The translations under genes were made by a program, and so were the position numbers. The notes under the pieces are model-generated. The model was not told the origin of the DNA, searched no databases, and saw only the letters and a list, made by a program, of their open reading frames with translations. From a virus (Duplodnaviria > Caudoviricetes), in the IMG/VR virus record IMGVR_UViG_3300046103_001526, positions 1-32,125 of that record: 32,125 nt of DNA. The stretch is one strand, 5' to 3'. This document shows positions 1,204 to 31,287 of this stretch, in pieces (positions within the stretch are counted from its first letter, which is position 1; the number at the start of each line of letters is the position of its first letter).

Positions 1204-1482
1204 ATGGATGTAGATAAAATTAAATTACAAATAATAAAAGCAGGCGAAAAAGCTGTTAAACAGTTGATTAAAGTTGCGGAAGAGGATATAATAAAATATG
1301 GAGATGATGATGAGCTTGCTGCAGATAAGTTAAAAAATGCAGCAGCTACAAAAAAATTAGCTATATTTGATGCATTTGAAATACTAACAAGAATAGAATT
1401 AGAAAAAAATTTAATAGAGGGAAATGATTCATCATCTCAAAAAAAATCAGTAGAAGGATTTGCAGAACGAAGATCAACATAA
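1204..1482 (+). CDS. putative terminase small subunit
   Basis: 92-aa helical protein directly upstream of, and overlapping, the large terminase; assignment is by synteny. Confidence 0.5.
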   Translation: MDVDKIKLQIIKAGEKAVKQLIKVAEEDIIKYGDDDELAADKLKNAAATKKLAIFDAFEILTRIELEKNLIEGNDSSSQKKSVEGFAERRST

Positions 1483-3706
1483 ATTAATACAAGAAATAAA
1501 AAATTATATTCCTAACTCAGTTATAGCAACTAAAAACAAAAACAAAAGCTGGGAATATGGTTATAATGAAAAGTATGACGTTATAGTAATATCTAAAACG
1601 GGTCAGATTAATGATATTATAGAAATATCAGGATTAATTATTGCACTTCCAAAACCTCCACAAAAAATACATTCAAGAAGTAAAATCAAAAAAGAACAAT
1701 ATTGGAAGCCAGACGAATTGCCTAAGGAACTAATTAAAGTTAAGTCTATATTTCAATGGCATGACGCACCAACTTCTTTTAAAAATAAACACATTGACTA
1801 TATTGAAAGTCAATTTGATAAAAGAGAAGAAGGTTTTTGGTTTATGAATAATGGAATTCCTACATACATTACAGGTTCTCATTGGATGTATATTCAACAC
1901 ACAAAAATAGATATTGGATTACCAGAGTATAGAGATGCTAATAGAGTATTTTATTTACATTGGGAAGCTTGTAAAGCTGATAAAAGAAGTTTTGGTCAAG
2001 ATTATTTAAAAATAAGGCGTTCAGGATTTTCTTATATGGCTAGTGAGGAAGCTAGTAATATAGGGACAATTAGTAAAGATGCTAGGATAGGTATATTATC
2101 CAAAACAGGTACAGATGCTAAAAAAATGTTTACAGATAAAGTTGTACCTATAGTAAATAATTATCCCTTCTTTTTTAAACCTGTTCAAGATGGTATGGAT
2201 AAACCTAAAACAGAATTAGCGTTTAGAGTTCCTGCTTCTAAGATTACAAAAAAAAATATGTATTTAGAAGACCAAGATGTTGTTGAGGGATTAGATACTT
2301 CTATTGACTGGAGAAATACAGGTGATAACAGTTATGATGGGGAAAAACTAAAATTACTGATTCATGATGAATCTAAGAAATGGGAGAAACCAAATAATAT
2401 TTTAAAGAACTGGAGAATTACAAAAACTTGTTTACGTTTAGGTAGTAAAGTTATTGGAAAATGTATGATGGGGTCTACTGCAAATGCATTAGAAAAAGGT
2501 GGTGACAATGGTAAAAAGCTATATTATGATTCTGATGTAAAAGATAGAAATCGTAATGGTCAAACTAAAAGCGGGTTATATTCACTTTTCATCCCTATGG
2601 AATTCAATATGGAAGGATTCATAGATAGATATGGTATGCCTGTTTTTAAAACTCCTGAAAAACCTATTTTAGGAATTGATGGAGAATACATAAAACAAGG
2701 AGCTGTAGATTATTGGGAAGCTGAAGTTGATAGTTTAAAAAATGATGCTGATGCATTAAATGAATTTTACAGACAGTTTCCAAGAACAGAATCCCATGCT
2801 TTTAGAGATGAAAGCAAGCAATCTCTTTTTAATCTTACCAAGATATATCAGCAAATTGATTATAATGATTCTTTAATTAAAGATAGATTTGTTACTAGAG
2901 GTTCTTTTTCATGGAAAGATGGAGTTAAAGATACTAATGTTATTTTTTCACCTAATAATAATGGAAGATTTTATGTTTCTTGGACACCTCCAAAACAATT
3001 ACAAAATAAATATAGAATAAAAAACGGAGTTAAATTCCCTAGCAACGACCATATGGGTGCGTTTGGATGTGATAGTTATGATATTTCAGGAACAGTTGGT
3101 GGTGGTGCTTCTAATGGAGCTTTACACGGAATGACTAAGTTTCATATGGATGAAGGACCTACTAATGAATTTTTTTTAGAATATGTTGCTAGGCCTCAAA
3201 CTGCAGAAATATTTTTTGAAGATGTATTGATGGCCTGTGTATTTTACGGAATGCCTATATTGATTGAAAATAACAAACCTCGTTTATTATATCATTTTAA
3301 AAATAGAGGTTATAGAGGATTTAGTATGAATAGACCTGACAAGGTATATAATAAATTATCAAAAACAGAAAAAGAATTAGGTGGAATGCCTAACAGTTCT
3401 GAAGATATAAAACAAGCCCATGCAGCAGCTATTGAATCTCATATTGAAAAACATGTTGGATTTGATTTAACTGAAACATTTAGAGACTCAGACCAAATAG
3501 GTTCAATGTATTTTACTAGAACATTAAATGATTGGGCTAGGTTTGATATTAGCAATAGAACAAAGTTTGATGCATCAATTAGTTCAGGGTTAGCTATAAT
3601 GGCGAATCAAAAGAATATGTATCAACCCATTAAAAAAGAATCAAAAATAAAACTTAACTTTGCAAGATATGACAATAAGGGAAGTTATAGCCAAATTATA
3701 AGATAA
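1460..3706 (+). CDS. terL: terminase large subunit
   Basis: Walker A-like KIRRSGFS, Walker B LLIHDE, motif III-like GSTAN, nuclease acidic motif FGCDSYD, ILIENN and a late FD. Precedes the portal. The only available start is TTG. Confidence 0.92.
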   Translation: MQNEDQHKLIQEIKNYIPNSVIATKNKNKSWEYGYNEKYDVIVISKTGQINDIIEISGLIIALPKPPQKIHSRSKIKKEQYWKPDELPKELIKVKSIFQWHDAPTSFKNKHIDYIESQFDKREEGFWFMNNGIPTYITGSHWMYIQHTKIDIGLPEYRDANRVFYLHWEACKADKRSFGQDYLKIRRSGFSYMASEEASNIGTISKDARIGILSKTGTDAKKMFTDKVVPIVNNYPFFFKPVQDGMDKPKTELAFRVPASKITKKNMYLEDQDVVEGLDTSIDWRNTGDNSYDGEKLKLLIHDESKKWEKPNNILKNWRITKTCLRLGSKVIGKCMMGSTANALEKGGDNGKKLYYDSDVKDRNRNGQTKSGLYSLFIPMEFNMEGFIDRYGMPVFKTPEKPILGIDGEYIKQGAVDYWEAEVDSLKNDADALNEFYRQFPRTESHAFRDESKQSLFNLTKIYQQIDYNDSLIKDRFVTRGSFSWKDGVKDTNVIFSPNNNGRFYVSWTPPKQLQNKYRIKNGVKFPSNDHMGAFGCDSYDISGTVGGGASNGALHGMTKFHMDEGPTNEFFLEYVARPQTAEIFFEDVLMACVFYGMPILIENNKPRLLYHFKNRGYRGFSMNRPDKVYNKLSKTEKELGGMPNSSEDIKQAHAAAIESHIEKHVGFDLTETFRDSDQIGSMYFTRTLNDWARFDISNRTKFDASISSGLAIMANQKNMYQPIKKESKIKLNFARYDNKGSYSQIIR

Positions 3707-6142
3707 ATGGAAGATGTAAAAATAGCAATTAATCCAACTGGATTTCCAAATCAATTTTCTTCTGACAGTGAAAAGAAAAGCTACGAGTTTGGGTTGCAGA
3801 TAGGTCAAGCTATACAATACGAATGGTTTAGACAGGATGGTGGCCAGAGTAGGTTTTATAACCAATGGGCTGATTTTCATAGATTAAGATTATACGCAAG
3901 AGGAGAACAGTCAGTTCAAAAATATAAAAATGAACTAGCTATTGATGGAGATTTAAGTTATTTAAACTTAGATTGGACACCTGTTCCAATTATACCAAAG
4001 TTTGTAGATATAGTTGTTAATGGAATGGCTGATAGGCTTTTTAAAGTAAATGTTTACGCTCAAGATGGAATGTCTTTGGACAAGAGAAGTAAATATCAAG
4101 TACAATTAGAAAAAGATATGTTAGCTAAACCTGTAATGAAACAGGTTCAAGAACAAACAGGGATAAATACTTTTGCAACTTCAGAAGAAGATATTCCAAA
4201 TACATCTGAAGAGTTGGCTCTTCATATGCAACTAAAATACAAACCTTCTATAGAAATTGCTGAAGAAGAAGCTATTAACACGGTATTAGATGAAAATAGA
4301 TACCATGATATAAAAAAGCAACTTTATTATGACCAGACTATTTTAGGTATTTCAATGTGTAAAAACTCATTTCAACCTGGAGCTGGGATTAAAATAGATT
4401 ATGTAGATCCTGCAAATGTTGTTTATAGTTATACAGAAGACCCTAATTTTAAAGATTGTTTTTATTGGGGAGAAGTTAAAACACTTCCTATTACAGAGTT
4501 AAAGAAAATTGACACAAGTTTGACTAGGGCTGATATGGAAGAAATATCAAAATATAGTCAAAGTTGGTATGATTACAATAATTCCGCTCAATACTATAAT
4601 AACAGTTTATTTAGTAATGATAGTGCTACAGTTTTGTTTTTCAACTATAAAACTACAAACACTTTTACTTATAAGAAAAAAATAAATGCATCAGGAGCTG
4701 AAAGGGTAATTGAAAAAGACGATACATTTAACCCTACTCCTGAAATGATGGATGAGGGTAATTTTGAAAAAGTATCTAAAACAATAGATGTTTGGTATGA
4801 AGGTGTTATGGTTATGGGTACGAGCATTTTAATAAAATGGGAAATGTCTGAAAACATGGCTAGACCTCAATCAGCATCTCAAGAAGTTTATCCGGAATAT
4901 ATAGCTTGTGCCCCTAGAATGTATAAAGGTGTTTTAGAATCTGTAACTAGACGTATGATTACGTTTGCTGATTTAATTCAAATGACTCACTTGAAGTTAC
5001 AACAAGTAATTTCTAGAGTTGTTCCAGATGGAGTATTTATAGACGCAGATGGTATTAATGAAGTTGACTTAGGGACTGGTAATGCATATAATCCTGAAGA
5101 CGCTCTTAGAATGTTTTTCCAAACAGGTAGTGTTATTGGTAGAAGTTATACTCAAGATGGAGATTATAATCAAGCAAAAGTTCCTATTCAACAATTAAAT
5201 AGTAATTCAGGTCAAGGTAAAATTCAAAGTTTAATAGGTACTTACAATCATTACTTATCTATGTTAAGGGATGTTACTGGATTAAATGAAGCAAGAGATG
5301 GTTCTACACCTGATTCTTATTCCTTAGTTGGATTACAGAAATTAGCAGCATTAAGTAGTAATACCGCTACTAGACACATATTAGATTCAGGACTTCAAAT
5401 TACAGAAAGATTATGTACTTCTTTATCTAGTAGGATTGCAGATATGTTACAGTACTCTGATTTTAGAGAAGAGTTTGTAAACCAAATAGGAAAATTTAAT
5501 GTAGGTATACTAGATGAAATAAGTAAACTTTATTTAAGTGATTTCGGTATTTTTATAGAAGTAGCACCTGATGAAGAGCAACAAAAAATGCTTGAACAAA
5601 ATATTCAGATGGCACTTCAAAGAGATTCTATTAATTTAGAAGATGCTATTGATATTAGAGAGATAAGAAATTTAAAGCTAGCTAATCAAGTTTTAAAATT
5701 AAAAAGAAAAGCAAAGCAGGATTTAGAACAACAACAAAAATCAGCAGCAACTCAACAGCAGGCTCAAATAAATCAACAATCTCAGCAAATGGCTGCTCAA
5801 ATGGCTGCTCAAAAACTTCAGATGGAAACTCAGGCAGCTATGCAAATAGAAGGAGCTAAAGCTGATTTCTCTGTTAAAAAAATGAGAGGTGAAGCTGCTA
5901 TTAAAGCTGAACTAATGAATCTTGAATTTGAGTTACAAATGAAATTAAAAGGAGTTGAAATTGAAGGATTAAAATCTAGAGAACTTCAACGTGAAGACGC
6001 TAAGTCTGATAGAATATCACAATCGAGTACAGAGCAATCAAAGTTAATAGAACAAAGGAAAAATAATTTACCTCCTGTAACTTTTGAATCTAATGAAGAT
6101 AGTTTAGATGGCTTTGACTTAGCAGAATTTGAGCCTAGATAA
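3707..6142 (+). CDS. portal protein
   Basis: 811 aa directly after TerL; PIIPKFVDIVVNG and TGLNEARDG motifs and a Q-rich coiled-coil C-terminus, as in crAss-like portals. Confidence 0.85.
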   Translation: MEDVKIAINPTGFPNQFSSDSEKKSYEFGLQIGQAIQYEWFRQDGGQSRFYNQWADFHRLRLYARGEQSVQKYKNELAIDGDLSYLNLDWTPVPIIPKFVDIVVNGMADRLFKVNVYAQDGMSLDKRSKYQVQLEKDMLAKPVMKQVQEQTGINTFATSEEDIPNTSEELALHMQLKYKPSIEIAEEEAINTVLDENRYHDIKKQLYYDQTILGISMCKNSFQPGAGIKIDYVDPANVVYSYTEDPNFKDCFYWGEVKTLPITELKKIDTSLTRADMEEISKYSQSWYDYNNSAQYYNNSLFSNDSATVLFFNYKTTNTFTYKKKINASGAERVIEKDDTFNPTPEMMDEGNFEKVSKTIDVWYEGVMVMGTSILIKWEMSENMARPQSASQEVYPEYIACAPRMYKGVLESVTRRMITFADLIQMTHLKLQQVISRVVPDGVFIDADGINEVDLGTGNAYNPEDALRMFFQTGSVIGRSYTQDGDYNQAKVPIQQLNSNSGQGKIQSLIGTYNHYLSMLRDVTGLNEARDGSTPDSYSLVGLQKLAALSSNTATRHILDSGLQITERLCTSLSSRIADMLQYSDFREEFVNQIGKFNVGILDEISKLYLSDFGIFIEVAPDEEQQKMLEQNIQMALQRDSINLEDAIDIREIRNLKLANQVLKLKRKAKQDLEQQQKSAATQQQAQINQQSQQMAAQMAAQKLQMETQAAMQIEGAKADFSVKKMRGEAAIKAELMNLEFELQMKLKGVEIEGLKSRELQREDAKSDRISQSSTEQSKLIEQRKNNLPPVTFESNEDSLDGFDLAEFEPR

Positions 6143-6905: not shown

Positions 6906-7997
6906 ATGGAATTTCAAGTAAAAGAAGTAAATCCCGTAGAAGAAAAATCAGTACAGGAAGTAGAAGCAAATTTACTTAACAAACACAATGAAGAACAACA
7001 AGTTGATTCTCAGGAACAAGAAATTCCTAAAGAAGATATTGTAGAGCCTGTTGCGGAAGCTCAGGAATTAGAGTTAAAAGATGAAGATGTTCTTTCATAT
7101 ATTAAAAATAAATATAATAAAGACATAGGGTCTGTAGATGAATTATTTTCTCAAAGAGAAGAATCGGAATCATTACCAGAAGATGTGTCTAAATATTTAG
7201 AATACAAAAAAGAAACTGGTCGTGGGTTTAAAGATTTCGTAAAAGTTAATAACGATTATGATGATTTAAATGATGACCAAATATTAGCAGAATATTATTC
7301 TTTAACTGAAGAAGATTTAGACTCTGAAGATATTCAATATTTAATGGAAGAGAGATTCTCTTACGATGAAGATATTGACGATGAGTCAGAACAGAAGAAA
7401 AAGAATATAGCTAAAAAAAGAGAGCTTTCTAAGGCAAAAAAGCATCTTAATACTTTAAAAGAAAAATATAGAACTCCTCTTGAGTCAAGTGGGAATTCTC
7501 TTTCAGATGAAGAATTAAATGAAATAACGTCTTATAGAGAATATGTCCAAAATTCTAAAACTACTACTGAGGCTAATCAAAAAAAGAGTGAGTATTTTAT
7601 GAAGAAGACTAATGAAGTTTTTAACCCTGAATTCAAAGGTTTTGAGTTTAACGTAGGTGACAAAACAGTTAAGTATTCTGATGGAGATGCAAACGAAATG
7701 AAAGCTAAACAAGTTAATCTTGATAATTTTGTAGGTAAATATACAGGAGAAGATGGTTTAATTAATGATGCTTATGGTTGGCATAAATCAATTAGTGCTG
7801 CAATGAATCCAGATCGTTTTGCTCAATATTTTTACGAGCAAGGAAAAGCTGATACCATTGGTGATGTTTCGAAGAAAAGTAAAAACATTAACATGCAGGT
7901 AAGGCAAACTCCTCAATCAATTGGTGATACAGGTTTTAAGGCACGACAGGTTTCAAGTGAAAGTGGAAAAGGATTAAGGATTAGGAGTAAAAAATAA
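6906..7997 (+). CDS. putative capsid scaffolding/assembly protein
   Basis: 363 aa, very acidic, with coiled-coil character and a basic C-terminal tip; immediately upstream of the major capsid gene. Confidence 0.65.
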   Translation: MEFQVKEVNPVEEKSVQEVEANLLNKHNEEQQVDSQEQEIPKEDIVEPVAEAQELELKDEDVLSYIKNKYNKDIGSVDELFSQREESESLPEDVSKYLEYKKETGRGFKDFVKVNNDYDDLNDDQILAEYYSLTEEDLDSEDIQYLMEERFSYDEDIDDESEQKKKNIAKKRELSKAKKHLNTLKEKYRTPLESSGNSLSDEELNEITSYREYVQNSKTTTEANQKKSEYFMKKTNEVFNPEFKGFEFNVGDKTVKYSDGDANEMKAKQVNLDNFVGKYTGEDGLINDAYGWHKSISAAMNPDRFAQYFYEQGKADTIGDVSKKSKNINMQVRQTPQSIGDTGFKARQVSSESGKGLRIRSKK

Positions 7998-8023
7998 TTA
8001 TTAAAAATTTAAAAAACAACAAA

Positions 8024-9442
8024 ATGGCAGTACAAGCAGTACCAGGTTTTGACTTGCAACCAAGTTCAGAACAAGTCTTATTACAGACAAATTATATTAC
8101 TAACTTTGATTTCTTAAATCAGTATCTTCCAGATACTTACGAAAAAGAATTCGAACGTTATGGAAACAGAACAGTAGCATCATTCTTAAGAATGGTAGGT
8201 GCTGAAATGCCTTCTAACTCAGATCTTATCAAATGGGCAGAGCAAGGAAGATTACATACTAAATATACGAACGTAACTTCAGCAGCAGCAGCAGCAGCAG
8301 GTACGGCTGTATTGACAATTAATGATGCATTAGTTCCTGGAACAGGTTCTATCGCTCTTAGAGTTGGTCAAACAGTAATGATATCTGATAGCACAGCAGC
8401 TTCAACGCTTAGTAACAAAGCGATTATAACTGCAGTTGATATTGCAAATGCAACAGCTACAGTAGCTTACTACGAAGTAGCAGGTCAAGCAGTTGCAGCA
8501 GGTGTACAATGTTCTTTATTTATTTATGGTTCAGAATTTCAAAAAGGTTCTATCGGAATGCAAGGTCAACTTGAAGCTGATGATTCTATTTTTGAAAACT
8601 CTCCAATTATCATTAAAGACCATTACGCAGTTTCTGGTTCTGATATGGCTCAAATTGGGTGGATTGAAGTAACAACTGAAAATGGTGCAACAGGATTCTT
8701 ATGGTATATGAAATCTGAGCATGAAACTAGACTTCGTTTTGAAGACTATTTAGAAACCGCTATGGTTGAAGCAGTACCTGCTGAAGCTGGTTCAGGAGCA
8801 TCAGCAATTGCAGAAGGAATTGCAAGTGGTGTAGGTAACAAAGGTTCAGAAGGACTTTTCTATGTAGTTGAAGAAAGAGGAAATGTATGGAGTGGTGGTA
8901 ACCCAACAGCTCTTGCAGATTTTGATGCTATTATACAAAGATTAGATAAGCAAGGTTCTATTGAAGAAAATGTGCTTTTCGTAAATCGTGAATTTGGATT
9001 TGACATTGACGATATGTTAGCATCACAAAACTCTTATGGAGCAGGTGGTACTTCTTATGGTTTATTTGATAATGATAAAGACATGGCTTTAAATTTAGGT
9101 TTCACAGGATTCCGTAGAGGTTATGATTTTTACAAAACAGATTGGAAATATCTTAATGACCCAACTATGCGTGGTGATATTGTTGGTGGTTCTATTAATG
9201 GGGTATTAGTACCTGCAGGTTCTACAACAGTATATGACCAAGTGTTAGGTAAAAATGCTAAGAGACCATTCTTACACGTTCGTTATAGAGCTTCAGAAAC
9301 TGAAGACAGAAAGTATAAGACTTGGATTACAGGTTCAGCAGGTGGAGCAGCTACTTCTAGCTTAGATGCTATGGAAGTAAACTTCTTATCTGAAAGAGCT
9401 TTATGTACTTTAGGTGCAAACAACTTCTTTATCTTTAAATAA
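8024..9442 (+). CDS. major capsid protein
   Basis: 472 aa, strongly biased codon usage (GCA/GGT/TTC/CGT), position after the scaffold, followed by a terminator. Confidence 0.85.
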   Translation: MAVQAVPGFDLQPSSEQVLLQTNYITNFDFLNQYLPDTYEKEFERYGNRTVASFLRMVGAEMPSNSDLIKWAEQGRLHTKYTNVTSAAAAAAGTAVLTINDALVPGTGSIALRVGQTVMISDSTAASTLSNKAIITAVDIANATATVAYYEVAGQAVAAGVQCSLFIYGSEFQKGSIGMQGQLEADDSIFENSPIIIKDHYAVSGSDMAQIGWIEVTTENGATGFLWYMKSEHETRLRFEDYLETAMVEAVPAEAGSGASAIAEGIASGVGNKGSEGLFYVVEERGNVWSGGNPTALADFDAIIQRLDKQGSIEENVLFVNREFGFDIDDMLASQNSYGAGGTSYGLFDNDKDMALNLGFTGFRRGYDFYKTDWKYLNDPTMRGDIVGGSINGVLVPAGSTTVYDQVLGKNAKRPFLHVRYRASETEDRKYKTWITGSAGGAATSSLDAMEVNFLSERALCTLGANNFFIFK

Positions 9443-21865: not shown

Positions 21866-24800
21866 ATGGATAAATTAAAAGCTCTTTACGAAAGCTATAT
21901 TGAAAAAGGATTGTTAAGTAGTGAAACTACTTTTGAGCAGTTTTCTTCAGCAAGTTCAGATATACAAGATGGATTATATAATCAAGGTGTTGAAAATAAA
22001 ATAATAAGTTCTTCAACAGATGTTAATACATTTAAATCTGCTTGGGCTGAAAAAAAAAATCCAATCGTTACTCCTTCAGATGGGGAAGAGGTTCTTACGG
22101 AATCTACTACCGAAACAGAAGTACAAGATGGTGTTTCGGATTCTTTAGAAGTAAACGAAGTAGTTGAAGAGGGTGTAATTAACGAATCTCAATTAAACTT
22201 TGGAGACCAAACAGGCCCTATTGTAGAAGAAAAAGAAGAAGTTCTTATACCTGATGCTCCTAATAGAAAAGGTGTATTAGAAAATAAAGATGGTTCTGTA
22301 TCTACACATAAAATGAGAACAGAAACTGATGGCCAAGGTAATTGGTTTTCTTTTCCTACAATATTTCAAAATGAAGATGGAAGTTTTGTTGACATGTCTG
22401 AACAGGCGGAACAGGATTGGGAGTCCGTATATAAAGAAGCAAAAAAAAGAGGAGAAGTTGTTGATTTTTTAAAAGATAAAGAATCGGCAATTGCTTATGG
22501 AGAAGGTTCTTGGAAAGAAAGATACAATTCTAAAAAAAACTTATTAAAAAAAGACTTTGAGTTATTATTAGAAAAGGTAAATAACCCCAATAGAGAAAAA
22601 GCTCCAGATATAAATACAGGAGGAGGTATTACAATGGGAATGAGTATGCCTGGTGTAGTTCTTGATTTAGATGTAGATGAAGAATTAAGATTAAAAATAG
22701 AATCAGACCCTAATATTCAAAAAGCATTATCTGTAGGATACATAAAAAAATCAGATGTAACAAAAGCATTAAAAGGAGACGTAAAATCTATAGAAAAACT
22801 TCAAGAACTTTCAGTGAAATCTATTGAAGATAACACTTTAAAACTACAGAGTGACGAACTTAAACCTTATGATGTTTATTCAGAAACACAAAATTATATT
22901 GAAACAAAAGAGGAAAAAGCAATAAAACAAAACGCTGTAAATGCAGTTAATGCTTTTGATACAGAAACAAAAACTCTTTTAGATTCAAATCCGAATGCTA
23001 CTGAAGAAGAAATTCAATCTATATTTAACAGAGAAGGAGCTCCGACAGAAGAGCAGTATGAGATTGCAGAAAATTCTGATTATCAACAAACAGGTTTTGA
23101 GGATGAAGATCTTGGTAGAATGTATAACCAAGAATCTCTTAAAAAATTATCAGATAAAAACGATAAGTTTAGTATAGCTGGTTTTAATGGTTACTTAAAT
23201 AAAAAAGGATTTAAAGAAAGATATAATCAGTTACTTGAAGATGAAACTATTGCTGAAGATGGTACAAGTTACGATTACACAGGTAATTATAATCCAACAT
23301 TAGCAGCAGAAAAACTTAAGTATGATTATTTAAAAAATTATCTTGCTGAAGCTGACATGCAAAGAATCGAAAAAGAAGTTTTAGATTATAAGATAGCAAA
23401 CAATGGTAAGAATCCATTTTTACATGGTGATACTGATAAGATAAACCTAAAACCTTCAGTTAGTACAGAAGACCTTGGTGAATATATGGGTGAGGAATTT
23501 AAAAGCCTTGCAGCTGTTGTAAAAAAACAAAAACTAGAAACCAAAGAAAACTATCAGACAGAAATTGAAGGAGGTTCAGGAGGAAGTAATTCTCAATGGA
23601 TTTTTGATATGGGGTCTCAAGGAGGTCGCTCTATAGATAATAGGGCAAATAGTTTTGCGGAGGGAGCTTATGGATGGGTAGGAATGGATTCTTTTTCTGA
23701 TGAGATTCAAATGAATCAAGCTGAAACAGAACTTAATAGAGATGATATGCTTAGGTACACATATGCAAGTGGTAGAAGTGCTTTTGCTAATGGTAGAGAA
23801 TATCTAATTGATGATAGAGGAGAGATATATGATTTAGATTTAAAGATAAGAGTTAGTAGTGTTTTAGAACCTGAACAGATAAAAGAAATAAAAAAACAAG
23901 TACAGATAAATGGAGTTAAAACAAGTAGTTTTAGTGGGACAGGTGCAGCGGTAACAACAGCAGGTGTGGCTTCTGATATGCTGCTTCAGATAGCTCTTAC
24001 TAGAGGTGTGGGAATGGCGGGACAAACTATTAAAGGTATAGCTGCTGCTTCTAAATATAAACAAGGTAGAAGTATAATAAGTTTATTAGAAAAAGTACCT
24101 ATGAAGGCTTCAACAGCATCAGCTATGATTGCTCAGGGAACTTTAATGGGAACTTCATTGTCTTCAGATGTAAGAAAACAAGCTTTAGCTGCAGGAATGT
24201 CAAATGAAGAGGCAAATGAATTAGCATCAAGTGCAGGTATGCAGGGTTATGCCCTAGGAGTTATAACAGCCCCTATATCTACTCAAAAGATTGCTATGGA
24301 TAAAATCTTTGGAACAAAAGTAAAAGAAAAACTTATCCAAAAAACTATAGATACATATGCCAGAGGAGCAGGTATTGAAGCTTCTAAAAATATTTTCAAA
24401 AAAGGGTTAGATGGTATAATAAGAACTGTACCTGTATACTTTAAAGAAGGTGCTAAGGAGTTTGTTCAAGAAAATATTCAACAAGCAGGACAGGCTTATG
24501 TTATTGGTTCTGATATAAATGAGCAAGCAGGTCAAGAAATAATGAAGGATACCATTAGTATGGATGACTTTATGAATACCTCTATAATATCTTTAACAGC
24601 TGGTATGTTAATGCCTTTTGCAGGAGATGTGCAAACAGGAGCGGTTAGAGCTTATAAAATGAGAGGTAAAGGTTTTCAGGCTGTAGACCAAATGAAATCA
24701 TTGGCTTTAATGGCTAATGATTCAGATAAAACAAAACAACTTTTAGATTCACAAGTTAAGAAAGGAGTATACACGCAAGAGCAAGTGGATAATGTAATGG

Positions 24801-27800
24801 CTGATGTAGATATATACAGAAGCACAATAAATGGTATGCCTCCAAACTTAAGCGCAGAGACATCTTTATTGGTTATGAGTGACTTAGCTGAGATAAAAAA
24901 ACTTGAAGCACAGAAAGCCTCACAAGCCCCTTCTTTTGCATATAGAAATGATGCAAAAATACAGCAATTAAAAAATAGAATAATTAAGAACAGTAATTTT
25001 GATTTTGTAGATAACAAATCAAAACAAAAGTTAATGGATGAAGCAGCTAAAGAATTAGTTGCTGAAAAAGAATCTAGTGGTGAAAAAAACTATTCTATAG
25101 ATAACTCTCAAATTAGAGCTAAAGCTGTAGAGAACTTTAATAAGTTATCACCAGAAGAAATGCAGGCGATAGCTTTTCCAGACCAAATAAAAGAAACAGA
25201 AACTAAAACAGATAAAGATGCCATTCAAGAGCCAAGCACAGAGGAGCAAGTGTTACCAAATGAAGAAACAAGCGGAGTCGATGGGGCAATCACCGAAGTG
25301 GGACTGCAACAAGTGGGAGAAGGAGTCGTTGAGTCAGACACTACCCAAGAGGTTGAAACCGAGAACGTACAAGAAACTACCGACAAAGCTAGCGACACGA
25401 CTACGGAGACAGATACTGAACAGTTAGCGGATACCCCACAAGTATTTGGGGACAATCCTCTTACTTCTATAGAAGTGTCAGAAAATTATAATGATATAGG
25501 TAAACAGAGAAGAGATAAACTTAGGGTTATCGCTCAAATGGAGCTTAATAATGAAATAACTACTGAGGAACAATTAGATCTTAGAGAGGAGTCTTTTAGG
25601 AATATGAAAAAAGCTACAGAATCTTTTAAATCTAAAACAAAAACTACGCAGACAGATACTACTTCTGAAACAGAAGTGATGAGTGTGAACAAGGATAATA
25701 AGATTGAATCATTTGCTAATAGATTAGTAGATGGTGAATCTACTCAGGAGTTTGGTGATGAAGCTCAACAGTTTTATGCGGAGAATCAATCAGATATAGA
25801 TGAGTTAGTTACACAGAAAAGAAAAGATGTTCCTAAGAATGAATCTAAAACAAGAAGACTAGCTACCAAGATAGCTAATGGGGATACTAATTTTTCTAAT
25901 GAACAAATAGATTTATACGCTTCAAATGAAGCAGATGTAAAAGCTGAGGTAGAATCTATTTCTAAGACCAACAGTCAAACTGTAACAGAAGATACTTATA
26001 AGAGTATTTTAAAATCTGTAAAGAGTACAACTAGAACTGACAAAGCAAAGCAGGAGGGAGAAAATGCTCAACGTAAAAGATTTTGGAAATCTTGGAATAA
26101 ATCAGCAAGACTTGCAAAAAAAGATTTAAAGACTAAAAGAAAAGAACTTAATGACCAAATTAAGACTTACGCTAAAGGTAAGAAAGGAACTATTACTGCT
26201 GCACAAACTAGAGCAGTTGTAAACAAAGTTAATAGTGTAAACCTTGACAATGAATTAGCTGTACAAGAATTAATAGATTACTCAGAGAAAGTTTTTAATA
26301 ATGCTGATTTTGCAGTTAAAGAACAATTAGCTATAAAGCTTAATAAACAAGTTACCACAAGATTAAATAAAGGTAACTATGGTTTAAGTCCAGATATTGT
26401 ATCAAGATTGACTACTATTTTAAATACACCAATTAAACAATTGACTAGTGAGAATATAGATTCTTACAATGATTTTTTAAGTAATCTTAAAAAACAAAAA
26501 GAAAACGTAAGAGTTGATGAACAGTTGGTAATAGACTCTCAGAATATGGCTGATGCTTTATATGTTGAAGGTAACCAGTACGTAGATGAAGAGGTTGAAA
26601 CTAAAAAAACTAAAACTTTAAAAAGTGTAGTTGATAAAATAATTAATGAAGATGTAGATGGCGAAACTTTAATTTCAGAGGATTCTAAGTTTATTGAAAA
26701 CGATTTAGATAAATTAGATTCATTTACATTACAAACTCTTATTGATAAAATTAATAATGCAGAGACTGATGAAAACCAAGAACTTGTACAGGCTGCTAAT
26801 GATTTTGCAGAGAATAGACAAAAGGCTTTAACACGAATAAAGTCTAGGTCTAAGGGAATAAGTTTAAAAAGTTTAGATAATACAACTAAAGAGGCAGGAG
26901 ATGTAGATGTGTTTAAGAATATTAAAGATAGTGACTTGATTGGGTTAACAGGTAAGCAATTAGACCTATTAGAAATAACACTTGAAAATATTAACGATGG
27001 ACATTACACTCACGCTGCAAATAAACTTGGACAGTCTGTAAATAGTAGGGCTTATAATATGAGACCAATGATTGCTAAGTATGGTAAATTAAAAAATAAA
27101 ATAGGTATGTTTAGAGGTAGGGCAGCTGCTTCTTTAAAATCTACATTAAAAGGTTCTAAATCTACACCATCTTTAGAAATTGCTAGAAGTAATCCATTAT
27201 CTGTAATAGATAATGCTTTTGGTAACTTTGATAATAATACAATTCGAAACAATTCTTTTGAACCAACTGCTACAAAATATTCTGCATTTAAAACCTTTAC
27301 AGGAAGACTTACAGATAAGCTTGATGCTGTAGAAAAAATAATAGCTCCTACATTAAAAGAAGGAACTAATCCAGCTATAACAAGAAGGTTTGAAATAACA
27401 ACATATTTATTAGCAAAAGAATATGAGTCTAATAAAGGTAACGATGGTGTTGCAGAAGCAAATGCATTTATAGATAAGACAATAGAAAAATTTAATGATG
27501 TAAATTCTGACAGCAACTACACTCAAGCTGATATAGATATACTACTTGCTATTAAGAAAAAGTATAGTGACAATGGTGTAATTACAAGTAAGAAAATGGA
27601 TGAGTCTTTATCTCCAAAAGTAAAGAAAGCTATAAAACTATTAGAAGAAGTTTATGGTGCTTTAGGAGATAAGCAAGCGTATGCTACAAGTATTGTTAGA
27701 GGTAATAAATTAGACTTACTAAACAATTATGTTCATCATAAGGTAGATGCAGCAAACGATAAAGATGATTCACAGTTATTAGCACAGAAAACTTATTTTG

Positions 27801-29614
27801 CGCCAAGCACAAGCACCGAATCTAAAACATCTATAGGCAGAACTAAAGGAGCAAAAGCAATTGACTTTGATCCTGTTTCTACTGCTCTTAGAGGATTAAG
27901 AGCAACCGGTTTAGATTTCTTTTTAACTAATGAAATTCAAACATCTAGAAAAGCCTTTGGTCAATTAACAAAAATAAGTCAAGAAAATAATGCATCAGAG
28001 GATGTAATAGAAGCTACACAATCTTTAAGTAGAGTATACAATGAATCTATTGAGAATGTTCTTGCTAGTAATTTCAGTACAGATGTTATTGGTGGTAAGT
28101 ATTTTGATATGGCTAAAAGAGTTGGTTACTATAGTACGTTAGCATCTGTCCCTAGATCTGTTGCGGAATTAGGAAGTAACTTAACGTTTGGATTATTAGA
28201 TTCCCCACTTCAGTTAATGCAGGGGATGACTAAATACGGTAATCTATCATTAATGCAAAACGGATTATCATTTGCCGAAAACGTAGGTTCAACTACTGTT
28301 AGTAAAAATTGGGGTTCAGAAATACTAGGAGGTTCTAAGGCAGAACAAGGAGGAGTAGTCAGAAATAAAAAGCCTGCAAAGAGAGCATCAAACAGTAATC
28401 TTAAAAGCTCTCTTCAGTATGGTAAAAGAGCTACGGATACTTTTGGAAAAGGAGTTGAGTTATTAGCAGACACCTTATTAAGTACTCCTGATAAAATGAT
28501 TTCAAGACCTTTATTTTTTGGTACGTTTGCTAAAACATTCAAACAGGAAACTGGTCAAGACATGGATGTTGATAAGATATCAAATAATGACCAAGAGTAT
28601 ATGACTAAGTATGCTGATGCTATCAAGGCTGCTAAAATTGCTGCTGATAAGAAAGTGACTCAAGCTGCTACATCTAATGACCCATTTAGTGGGGTATTGA
28701 AAAATCAACTTTCAGATACAGATAATGGTTTCATGATATATTACAAAACAATAAACTCATACATGTCTAGATTCTCTATTAATGAATTTGCTACAGCAAG
28801 ACAAGCAGTAGCTTCTATGATTGGACAGGGAGAGGAAAGTGCTATTAAAGGTGGAGCAAAACTTGCAGGAGTTATGACACGAATGAGTCTGTATGTTGTA
28901 ATGTATAAGGCATTTGCTTCTATGTTTAATGGTATGTTAGGATTAGATGATGAAGACGAAACAGACTATAAAGAGTTAGGTATAAGACAATTAGCAGGGG
29001 CAGGTGTTTCTTTAATAACAAGAGGAGCTTCAGGTAACGTGCCTATGATTCCTATAAATTACGGTATAGAGTTATTAAATGAAGAGTATGGAGAACAGCT
29101 TGGGTTGTGGTCAGATAAAGATGGAAAAGGTTATAATTCTTTCAAGCATTCAATTATTTTTAGTGTAATAAACCAACAAAGTTTAGAGAGTAAAGGATTT
29201 TTTAAATCTGCTGCAAGTGTTTTAGCAGGGCCTCTTAGTCCTCAAGTAATGGCCGCAGGTCGAATAGCTGAATTATTAATTGCTATGAAGGCTGGAGGTA
29301 CTGCAGGAGATAAAGCAGCTAAGAAGTTCTTTTCAGAAAGAACTGCAATAGAAGCAGCAGGTATTGTAGGGGCAATGCCTTTTTACAAAGACCTTAGAAG
29401 ATATTTTATGGCTGAAGATTGGTCTAAGATAAAAGAAGCAAAAGCAGCAAATGAATCTGATAAAGGACTTACTTATGAAGAACTTAAAATTTTTAATCCA
29501 AGAGCCGCAGAGAAACTTAAGAGAGACAAAAAATCAGCCAATAAAAAATACAAATCTACAAGTGCATACCGAAAAGTAAAAGCAATGGAAGACAAACTAA
29601 AAAAGTTTAAATAG
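21866..29614 (+). CDS. giant putative ejection/DNA-transfer protein (2582 aa)
   Basis: Last gene of the virion operon; mostly helical with acidic linkers, Gly/Ala-rich hydrophobic segments and an EFVQENIQQ motif; no recognisable catalytic motif. Confidence 0.65.
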   Translation: MDKLKALYESYIEKGLLSSETTFEQFSSASSDIQDGLYNQGVENKIISSSTDVNTFKSAWAEKKNPIVTPSDGEEVLTESTTETEVQDGVSDSLEVNEVVEEGVINESQLNFGDQTGPIVEEKEEVLIPDAPNRKGVLENKDGSVSTHKMRTETDGQGNWFSFPTIFQNEDGSFVDMSEQAEQDWESVYKEAKKRGEVVDFLKDKESAIAYGEGSWKERYNSKKNLLKKDFELLLEKVNNPNREKAPDINTGGGITMGMSMPGVVLDLDVDEELRLKIESDPNIQKALSVGYIKKSDVTKALKGDVKSIEKLQELSVKSIEDNTLKLQSDELKPYDVYSETQNYIETKEEKAIKQNAVNAVNAFDTETKTLLDSNPNATEEEIQSIFNREGAPTEEQYEIAENSDYQQTGFEDEDLGRMYNQESLKKLSDKNDKFSIAGFNGYLNKKGFKERYNQLLEDETIAEDGTSYDYTGNYNPTLAAEKLKYDYLKNYLAEADMQRIEKEVLDYKIANNGKNPFLHGDTDKINLKPSVSTEDLGEYMGEEFKSLAAVVKKQKLETKENYQTEIEGGSGGSNSQWIFDMGSQGGRSIDNRANSFAEGAYGWVGMDSFSDEIQMNQAETELNRDDMLRYTYASGRSAFANGREYLIDDRGEIYDLDLKIRVSSVLEPEQIKEIKKQVQINGVKTSSFSGTGAAVTTAGVASDMLLQIALTRGVGMAGQTIKGIAAASKYKQGRSIISLLEKVPMKASTASAMIAQGTLMGTSLSSDVRKQALAAGMSNEEANELASSAGMQGYALGVITAPISTQKIAMDKIFGTKVKEKLIQKTIDTYARGAGIEASKNIFKKGLDGIIRTVPVYFKEGAKEFVQENIQQAGQAYVIGSDINEQAGQEIMKDTISMDDFMNTSIISLTAGMLMPFAGDVQTGAVRAYKMRGKGFQAVDQMKSLALMANDSDKTKQLLDSQVKKGVYTQEQVDNVMADVDIYRSTINGMPPNLSAETSLLVMSDLAEIKKLEAQKASQAPSFAYRNDAKIQQLKNRIIKNSNFDFVDNKSKQKLMDEAAKELVAEKESSGEKNYSIDNSQIRAKAVENFNKLSPEEMQAIAFPDQIKETETKTDKDAIQEPSTEEQVLPNEETSGVDGAITEVGLQQVGEGVVESDTTQEVETENVQETTDKASDTTTETDTEQLADTPQVFGDNPLTSIEVSENYNDIGKQRRDKLRVIAQMELNNEITTEEQLDLREESFRNMKKATESFKSKTKTTQTDTTSETEVMSVNKDNKIESFANRLVDGESTQEFGDEAQQFYAENQSDIDELVTQKRKDVPKNESKTRRLATKIANGDTNFSNEQIDLYASNEADVKAEVESISKTNSQTVTEDTYKSILKSVKSTTRTDKAKQEGENAQRKRFWKSWNKSARLAKKDLKTKRKELNDQIKTYAKGKKGTITAAQTRAVVNKVNSVNLDNELAVQELIDYSEKVFNNADFAVKEQLAIKLNKQVTTRLNKGNYGLSPDIVSRLTTILNTPIKQLTSENIDSYNDFLSNLKKQKENVRVDEQLVIDSQNMADALYVEGNQYVDEEVETKKTKTLKSVVDKIINEDVDGETLISEDSKFIENDLDKLDSFTLQTLIDKINNAETDENQELVQAANDFAENRQKALTRIKSRSKGISLKSLDNTTKEAGDVDVFKNIKDSDLIGLTGKQLDLLEITLENINDGHYTHAANKLGQSVNSRAYNMRPMIAKYGKLKNKIGMFRGRAAASLKSTLKGSKSTPSLEIARSNPLSVIDNAFGNFDNNTIRNNSFEPTATKYSAFKTFTGRLTDKLDAVEKIIAPTLKEGTNPAITRRFEITTYLLAKEYESNKGNDGVAEANAFIDKTIEKFNDVNSDSNYTQADIDILLAIKKKYSDNGVITSKKMDESLSPKVKKAIKLLEEVYGALGDKQAYATSIVRGNKLDLLNNYVHHKVDAANDKDDSQLLAQKTYFAPSTSTESKTSIGRTKGAKAIDFDPVSTALRGLRATGLDFFLTNEIQTSRKAFGQLTKISQENNASEDVIEATQSLSRVYNESIENVLASNFSTDVIGGKYFDMAKRVGYYSTLASVPRSVAELGSNLTFGLLDSPLQLMQGMTKYGNLSLMQNGLSFAENVGSTTVSKNWGSEILGGSKAEQGGVVRNKKPAKRASNSNLKSSLQYGKRATDTFGKGVELLADTLLSTPDKMISRPLFFGTFAKTFKQETGQDMDVDKISNNDQEYMTKYADAIKAAKIAADKKVTQAATSNDPFSGVLKNQLSDTDNGFMIYYKTINSYMSRFSINEFATARQAVASMIGQGEESAIKGGAKLAGVMTRMSLYVVMYKAFASMFNGMLGLDDEDETDYKELGIRQLAGAGVSLITRGASGNVPMIPINYGIELLNEEYGEQLGLWSDKDGKGYNSFKHSIIFSVINQQSLESKGFFKSAASVLAGPLSPQVMAAGRIAELLIAMKAGGTAGDKAAKKFFSERTAIEAAGIVGAMPFYKDLRRYFMAEDWSKIKEAKAANESDKGLTYEELKIFNPRAAEKLKRDKKSANKKYKSTSAYRKVKAMEDKLKKFK
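22050..22167 (+). other. candidate slippage site (A10) and -1 frame extension of 35 aa
   Basis: A10 at 22050-22059. The -1 frame is closed by TGA at 22048-22050, then reads KKK-SNRYSFRWGRGSYGIYYRNRSTRWCFGFFRSKRSS to TGA at 22165-22167. Confidence 0.5.
25218..25427 (+). CDS. nested +1-frame small basic protein (MPFKSQAQR...) overlapping the giant gene
   Basis: ATG with A-rich leader; N-terminus and KWEKE..LPKR resemble a small phage protein family as I recall it; host-frame third positions become GC-rich across this interval. Confidence 0.6.
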   Translation: MPFKSQAQRSKCYQMKKQAESMGQSPKWDCNKWEKESLSQTLPKRLKPRTYKKLPTKLATRLRRQILNS

Positions 29615-30906: not shown

Positions 30907-31287
30907 TTAATTATTATTGTAAGAATCTTGTTGTTTCTCACGTAATTCTATTGTTAACAACTCCTTTTCTAAATGCATTATCTCTTTTCTTATACGGTCA
31001 GCCCTTCCTCCAGACAATAAATCTAGGCATCTATTGTAGTTGTGTCTAAATTCCTTATCTACTTCTAATAAGTCTTGAGCACTCTTATATCCAAATATTA
31101 TAGTTGCATGGTCATTATTAAATACCCTTGCTATTCTTTGATAAGTGTAACTATATATATCTCTAAAAACTGTATAAGCTAATCTTCTGGCATCAACAAC
31201 ATCTCTTTTCCTACCTTTCTCAGTAATGTGAGATACTTTTAAAATTGTTTCAATGGTCTCTATAACTAATTGTTCTTGTTTATTCAT
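30907..31287 (-). CDS. stand-alone DnaA C-terminal (domain IV) helix-turn-helix protein
   Basis: GRKRDVVDARRLAY...YTYQRIARVFNNDHATIIFG parallels DnaA domain IV (R.R....ARQIAMY...S...IG..F..RDHTTV.HA); coiled-coil C-terminus. Confidence 0.75.
   Translation of the reverse strand: MNKQEQLVIETIETILKVSHITEKGRKRDVVDARRLAYTVFRDIYSYTYQRIARVFNNDHATIIFGYKSAQDLLEVDKEFRHNYNRCLDLLSGGRADRIRKEIMHLEKELLTIELREKQQDSYNNN

Follow-up and report, generated by a model that had tools for sequence, protein, structure and literature searches.

The question raised by this locus is whether the gene for a giant phage protein holds, in its +1 frame, a second and much smaller gene, as an earlier note on the sequence had proposed. 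The window, by which we mean the whole stretch of 32,125 nucleotides that was analysed, is a partial phage record (53% complete) in which terminase, portal and structural genes are present. Its terminase large subunit and portal genes (1460..6142, plus strand) relate it to the cultured Bacteroidota phages Elemovirus (45% portal identity), Callevirus and Baltivirus. A scaffold-like gene (6906..7997, plus strand) lies between the portal gene and the presumed major capsid gene; it has no nested ORF here, and its homologues (33% identity to that of L035) carry a nested copy in another branch. Elsewhere in the window, a separate 256-aa gene at 17745-18515 matches the Pfam family crAss_MUZ_C (crassvirus muzzle C-terminal domain, E 2e-14), a GroES-like gene (636-1202) precedes the terminase gene, and on the minus strand a small gene (30907-31287) encodes a DnaA C-terminal helix-turn-helix.

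The host gene (21866..29614, plus strand) stands at the end of the structural module and encodes 2582 aa. Neither a Pfam domain nor a D-x-D-G-D motif was found in the protein, and its C-terminal 804 aa had no match among cultured phages. It is presumed to be a virion protein that is ejected, on the grounds of its position, its size, its synteny with phi18:3 gp123 and Elemovirus gp18, and the precedent of polyvalent proteins. For large polyvalent and DarB-like phage proteins, whose genes are found in company with virion genes, packaging and injection have been predicted (PMC5512222). Among the giant host proteins of GC-rich phages, five match phrog_11358 and one (L173) a DarB-like PHROG, whereas the sole match of the window's giant protein is phrog_32588 (unknown function), and the accessible parts of PMC5512222 contain no mention of a nested gene.

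The small frame and its start

Between 25218 and 25427 on the plus strand, an intact ORF of 69 codons lies in the +1 frame of the giant gene, with start and stop both inside the host coding sequence; position, frame and encoded peptide are all as the earlier note had them. The product would have 69 aa, a mass of 8.2 kDa, a charge of +14 and a pI of 10.5. Its ATG falls in host codon 1118 (GAT), and in the host frame the overlap (25217..25426, plus strand) reads as an acidic low-complexity linker, with 20 D/E and a single K/R among 70 residues. Host codons ending in G/C, put at about 31 in the first reading and said to exceed the flanks, were counted at 30 of 70, against 17% in the remaining giant gene and at most 20 in every other 70-codon window of it. 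The longest +1 stop-free run of the giant gene, 78 codons, is the one with the nested ORF, and when host codons were resampled by the gene's own usage (20,000 trials), the frame was open and the ATG kept in 0.62%. Taken alone, this figure is modest evidence, because the giant gene also holds a +1 ORF of 60 aa (at 22995), and it is the comparative evidence that decides. The lack of +1 stops in the overlap, and of any T before AA, AG or GA, results from the selection of copies and was left out as evidence.

Translation in Flavobacterium is favoured by A at -3, -6, -12 and -13 (PMC6847099). The likely initiation region of the nested gene (25198..25217, plus strand) is of this Bacteroidota type and has no Shine-Dalgarno sequence: the A-rich context with A at -3 is present as quoted at the outset, and A is also found at -6, -12 and -13. 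At least three of the four key adenines precede 92 of 120 low-GC nested copies, as against 960 of 6,941 other +1 ATGs in the same hosts; the A at -3 alone is less marked (62% of nested copies and 34% of other +1 ATGs). The GC-rich phages have instead Shine-Dalgarno-like GGAG/AGGAGG motifs inside the host gene. RNA contigs from three metatranscriptome runs (share of words 0.05-0.08) covered scattered pieces only and do not bear on translation or its level.

The A-rich runs found upstream of the ATG in many copies could also be read as sites of programmed frameshifting into +1, by which the giant protein would gain an alternative basic C-terminal tail. Such an origin is very improbable, since the conserved part starts exactly at Met-Pro-Phe, the same as in free-standing genes, the initiation signal fits the type of host, and a +1 stop lies 9 codons upstream of the ATG in the window and directly before it (zero codons) in L067, L071, L075 and L077. 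We put the probability that the nested gene is translated from its own internal start at roughly 93%, judging from sequence.

Selection on the overlap

The overlap had been taken by the earlier note to be dual coding. When rates in both frames were compared, the proposed selection on the +1 frame was borne out: pN/pS over the overlap was 0.36 (95% CI 0.29-0.44) in +1 and 1.37 in the host frame, the inner frame being under purifying selection. Across five groups analysed through disjoint pairs, values were 0.16-0.34 in +1 against 0.95-1.71 in the host frame, and in the flanks the relation was reversed (0.92-1.29 in +1 against 0.24-0.60 in the host frame). With a nucleotide, and hence frame-neutral, alignment from which the first 13 codons were removed, pN/pS was 0.41 (0.33-0.50) in +1 against 1.41 in the host frame for the window's group, 0.18 against 1.11 for the scaffold group, and 0.57 (0.44-0.75) against 1.25 for five non-independent pairs including the window. 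The host frame of the overlap is under no purifying selection beyond staying open. The dual coding is in this sense one-sided.

The first sample was picked by the peptide, and ascertainment was checked by three other samplings, based on the host C-terminus, the host motif and the capsid. Sampling by host C-terminus gave five intact loci out of seven, three of the seven contigs being also in the first sample. Sampling by the host motif with codons left free gave 62 loci, every one of which has the ATG and an open frame (42-68 codons), so that start and frame are kept in these relatives as the proposal of a gene implied. In 49 distinct sequences of this motif, many of which share ancestry and thus represent fewer than 49 independent events, Ala is encoded by GCC 49 times (13% elsewhere in the same genes), Val by GTG 49 times (11% elsewhere) and Glu by GAG 49 times (34%). 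First codon positions vary there while host synonymous sites are fixed, and the host residues alternate between D/N/Y, I/V/L, E/K and S/P.

The DAIQE/NAIQE linker, named at first reading as a recurrent element of such proteins, does recur in related giant proteins and always carries a +1 ATG; in the long ORFs of the loci, each of the 92 distinct DAIQE-type motifs opens a Met-Pro frame in +1, which in one case is truncated where the contig ends. Since host synonymous sites are also fixed, the acidic linker is, as far as comparison of sequences can tell, the shadow of the small gene, and a recurrent 'motif' of giant virion proteins is explained as an artefact of the other frame.

These data also bear on the explanation that there is no second gene, and that a conserved host motif (e.g. 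a protease site), a signal in DNA or RNA, or chance has produced the pattern. Chance long +1 ORFs do occur in the giant gene, like that of 60 aa at 22995, and the sampled relatives share ancestry. However, variation falls on the host residues and spares the host synonymous sites, a signal acting on DNA would not free every third base of the +1 frame, and there are thousands of free-standing homologues; of all the explanations considered, this is the most improbable. That the giant phage gene contains a real nested gene is highly probable.

Sampling by the presumed capsid protein covered 35 of 80 records, those of at least 19 kb. Exactly one match was found in 20 of the 35, namely 19 intact nested +1 copies and one pseudogene. 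Eight of the 15 records without a match were examined (two in part): four have a whole giant gene with no detectable copy, and in the others the giant gene is missing from the fragment. The nested gene is common but dispensable: because it is absent from these four whole giant genes and from phi38:1, phi18:3, phi13:2 and Gundel_1, where no copy was found, it is not required for this virion type. The phage group with the nested gene accounts for an estimated ~13,000 capsid-gene matches in IMG/VR.

Two nearly identical records (L086 and L087, at ~8020-8170; 38% and 71% complete), which are the remaining two of the seven loci sampled by host C-terminus, hold a natural pseudogene, in which an in-frame host deletion takes out the nested ATG and ~17 codons and a stop is gained at the conserved Cys; the records have no other copy. 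Where the family is absent, giant genes contain further +1 ORFs (38-69 codons) that begin in an A-rich context within linker-like regions and are possibly different nested genes. They are sited at codon ~813 of L419, ~900 of L423, ~676 and ~958 of phi18:3 gp123 (L314), and ~727 and ~1013 of phi13:2 gp127 (L317).

Homologues, host genes and age of the family

The window peptide has no Pfam or PHROG match, and a single-sequence word-index search with it returned nothing; a profile search later succeeded. A tblastn search matched the peptide to 68 Elemovirus records, where the matching DNA lies under a gene labelled 'structural protein'. In a cultured Elemovirus grown on Flavobacterium sp. BAL314, the copy (NC_055853.1 52379) has 42 aa, goes unannotated and lies within gp18 (3694 aa) in its +1 frame. 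In IMG/VR, confirmation succeeded for 109 of 599 candidate stretches; of the 80 that were retained, 71 are nested in +1 and 9 free-standing. A profile built from 67 copies matched 3,744 called proteins among 8,000 candidates scored; the free-standing homologues expected at the outset thus exist in large numbers, with free loci in IMG/VR as well. With a broader profile, 463 of 600 scanned stretches were confirmed in IMG/VR, where ~6,700 pattern matches are estimated, and 221 of 372 among genome contigs. The best 80 viral and best 80 genome-contig copies include 27 and 18 nested in +1, and 2 in +2, counts in which a few are chance frames in GC-rich DNA and from which contig ends hide a few nested ones. 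The nestings in L180, L287, L289, L304 and L308 are probably such chance frames and were left out of the host groups, the apparent nesting in L180 being an upstream extension of the terminase frame.

The gp48 gene of Streptomyces phage FlowerPower, matched weakly in sequence, is a free copy, and a free member of 34 aa, unannotated in the record, lies among the structural genes of phage C75C1 (L091:6001; OQ984151.1 34579). Relatives occur among ordinary bacterial genes in Acidobacteriota and Gemmatimonadota contigs, and a structure search gave weak links to proteins of Harvfovirus (E 0.008) and Terrestrivirus (E 0.017). PHROG 1375 (unknown function) was weakly matched by 5 of the 67 members of alignment A1 and 12 of 30 further relatives (best E 3.4e-5), the window peptide differing from them in that it has no match. 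The nearest named clusters in a language-model search were those of Pfam DUF3008 (PF11450), at a score of 0.86, below the tool's 0.9 mark; its HMM at gathering threshold matched 0 of 67 members, and it is kept as a lead only. In the literature searched (titles and abstract openings, with subscription papers mostly outside the scope), neither the family nor its nesting is described; phage proteomics supplements could hold the peptide. Nested copies are invisible to gene callers, so virion proteomics on annotated proteins could not have seen it.

With the overlap masked, the nested hosts form four groups unlinked by BLAST and 4 singletons. The groups comprise 82 Bacteroidota-type giants, 38 scaffold-like proteins whose genes lie between portal and capsid genes, 6 giants of GC-rich phages and 4 other giants; the missing BLAST link among giants does not prove non-homology, while the scaffold-like gene is clearly a different gene. 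All well-supported nested hosts are virion-module genes. A complete scaffold-nested genome has one copy only, and likewise the other checked records except G043. There, a truncated duplicate of the nested start, 13 residues long (L012:4326-4367), lies 675 bases upstream of the intact copy with the host frame kept, as if a recombination event had inserted a module and left this scar.

The tree built from 40 giant C-termini is midpoint-rooted and has long branches that meet. In it, five phages whose giant gene is directly followed by a free copy group with two copyless ones in one branch (99/98), the 'none' row of L061 being a split host with a nested copy upstream. Lying among nested lineages, this branch hints tentatively at a nested ancestor from which the gene escaped in some phages and was lost in others. 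Directly after the nested stop, a host segment (25427..25675, plus strand) is hypervariable by comparison with close relatives, with 24-38% identity and varying length, as against 59-83% in the other bins examined.

In the -1 reading of the small gene, a stop can arise only where a T in third position is followed by AA, AG or GA. Synonymous change is therefore able to open this reading; hence the nesting is always +1. Of 119 free copies, 21 already have an open -1 reading, though some of these are probably nested copies truncated at contig ends; the reading is near-neutral and polar, with a median charge of +2. Kept open via third codon positions alone, it would yield a polar and, here, acidic spacer, of a kind that large modular or scaffold proteins may tolerate. 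The small gene is very probably the older occupant and the host linker its by-product.

The internal same-strand +1 overlap is shared with phiX174 E within D, an overprinted gene. Classical overprinting typically has a new, narrowly distributed gene as its inner +1 frame (PMC8227390). Here, in contrast, the inner gene is more widely distributed and more constrained, and by the phylogenetic criterion of the same source its wider distribution makes the host linker the new frame. A classical de novo overprinted gene was rejected in view of the 3,744 called homologues and the free copies in unrelated phages and bacterial contigs.

Nested genes of tailed dsDNA phages are known mainly from spanins. 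Rz and Rz1, two membrane subunits of one lysis complex, are described as always nested with each other, the small +1 gene lying wholly inside another, sharing DNA with a flexible linker and often being missed by annotation (PMC6139136). The nesting in +1, the flexible host linker and the annotation miss are common to lambda Rz/Rz1 and to the present case, but members of the present family occur in both states, free-standing and embedded, the latter in four host groups without a BLAST link to one another, and no lysis role is evident. In its accessible parts, the spanin survey reports embedded and separated forms, but none of its families combines embedded members with overlapped or separated ones (PMC6139136); one gene family in free, embedded and lost states is the case that it sought and did not find. 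A spanin identity was rejected for both genes: by inspection, the inner product has a charged N-terminal helix without a hydrophobic signal stretch or lipobox, as well as no Pfam or PHROG match, and the outer one is a protein of 2582 aa at the end of the structural module, not a small i-spanin in a lysis cassette.

A wider reading, which we offer as a possibility well short of even odds, would see in these observations an old family of small basic DNA-binding peptides of phages, giant viruses and soil bacteria that behaves as a portable, frame-preserving cassette. It would have been swallowed independently by at least four unrelated virion genes, with a single copy moving between them, escaping, and marking a module-swap junction of giant ejected proteins. 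If true, this would mean a hidden head-core protein in very abundant aquatic Bacteroidota phages, and textbook overprinting reversed.

The product and its possible role

The predicted structure is a helix hairpin (residues 6-22 and 30-38) followed by a basic tail and a third helix (57-68), with a pLDDT of 83.5 and a pTM of 0.45, and that of a free relative is predicted likewise. By sequence or fold, no relatives were found among solved structures (best Z 3.6), a result that is no proof of a new fold. F3 and Q8 are invariant, and W33, L42 and P43 near-invariant. Cys12 and Cys30 (window 25229-25310) are concordant in 255 of 255 copies, 66 having both and 189 neither, a pattern that may reflect one lineage; the pair is a candidate disulfide or metal site. 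Net charge has a median of +13 in nested and +11 in free copies, and the window peptide (69 aa, ~30% of them Lys/Arg, +14, pI 10.5) is small and strongly basic, as a virion core or protamine-like protein would be. The microvirus J protein is a small basic genome-binding virion peptide. With it and with baculovirus P6.9 the family shares its short length, its richness in Lys/Arg and a small conserved hydrophobic part, an analogy of composition only; no sequence or fold match of the nested family to peptides of the J/P6.9 type was found.

Terminase, portal, scaffold or head protease genes adjoin 12 of the 67 free loci, or 12 of the 29 with a named neighbour, and the remaining 17 of 29 have other genes beside them (nucleases, replication, tail); this count used 112 of 115 neighbours, and L230 is probably a cut scaffold-nested copy. 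Free copies in L063 and L066 also lie beside head-type genes of these four kinds. Among bacterial copies, 2 of 25 (L294 and L306, both Acidobacteriota contigs) lie beside Ku and uracil-DNA glycosylase in one case and an ATP-dependent DNA ligase in the other, and most others have unrelated neighbours. A copy on a viral contig (L154) is located after a ligase gene.

Our preference, at slightly less than even odds, is for an accessory DNA-binding peptide inside the phage head, DNA binding being suggested by charge alone. An internal start on late structural mRNA would give rise to the basic peptide, of which the conserved N-terminal helix hairpin may anchor or sort it and the variable Lys/Arg tail may neutralise or protect packaged DNA. 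It would thus belong to the core as an accessory protein, synthesised together with scaffold, portal or giant cargo protein. Giant viruses have no HK97-type head, and since they and bacterial contigs have relatives, the conserved core cannot be specific to this capsid; across phage, bacterial and giant-virus settings, the common ligand is more likely nucleic acid than one capsid protein.

The same breadth of settings would suit a product that is not packaged and acts in the infected cell as a small nucleic-acid-binding factor (on phage or host DNA, or on ribosomes), in late takeover or in protection against host defence. Besides the giant-virus relatives, this explanation can draw on bacterial-contig relatives without phage neighbours, including the two beside Ku and uracil-DNA glycosylase or a ligase, on a patchy presence typical of accessory genes, and on the 17 of 29 named neighbours that are non-head genes. 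It is nevertheless unlikely, given that nested copies are confined to virion-module genes in all four host groups and that unrelated phages repeatedly have free copies between terminase, portal and scaffold. Placement within the giant gene or immediately behind it, or else between portal and scaffold, would be natural for a protein-binding assembly adaptor that loads the giant cargo protein or organises scaffold and portal, nesting coupling its synthesis to the partner; the acidic host linker and the scaffold are charge-complementary to the peptide, and the invariant and near-invariant residues offer a conserved surface. However, BLAST finds no link among the hosts, between which the gene moves, so that no fixed partner is evident, and the bacterial and giant-virus relatives are without such partners; we consider an adaptor a little less likely again than the cell-acting factor. 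The accessory DNA-binding peptide of the head is the reading that we favour.

Distant relatives (P0123-P0160) have GPRGG/GPKGG-type tails, SPKK-like repeats or Cys-rich ends, and those with GPRGG tails we take to be giant-virus-like proteins. A cluster look-up of 10 giant-virus-like relatives gave no useful names, and five short motifs had no match in the searched supplements of the Melbournevirus virion study (PMC13365592). Melbournevirus MEL_368 was rejected as a relative, being a histone doublet according to that study. In four loci (L204:6001, L219:6001, L221:6001 and L262:6001), the N-terminal part of the family opens longer proteins of 225-926 aa, so that it can act as an N-terminal module.
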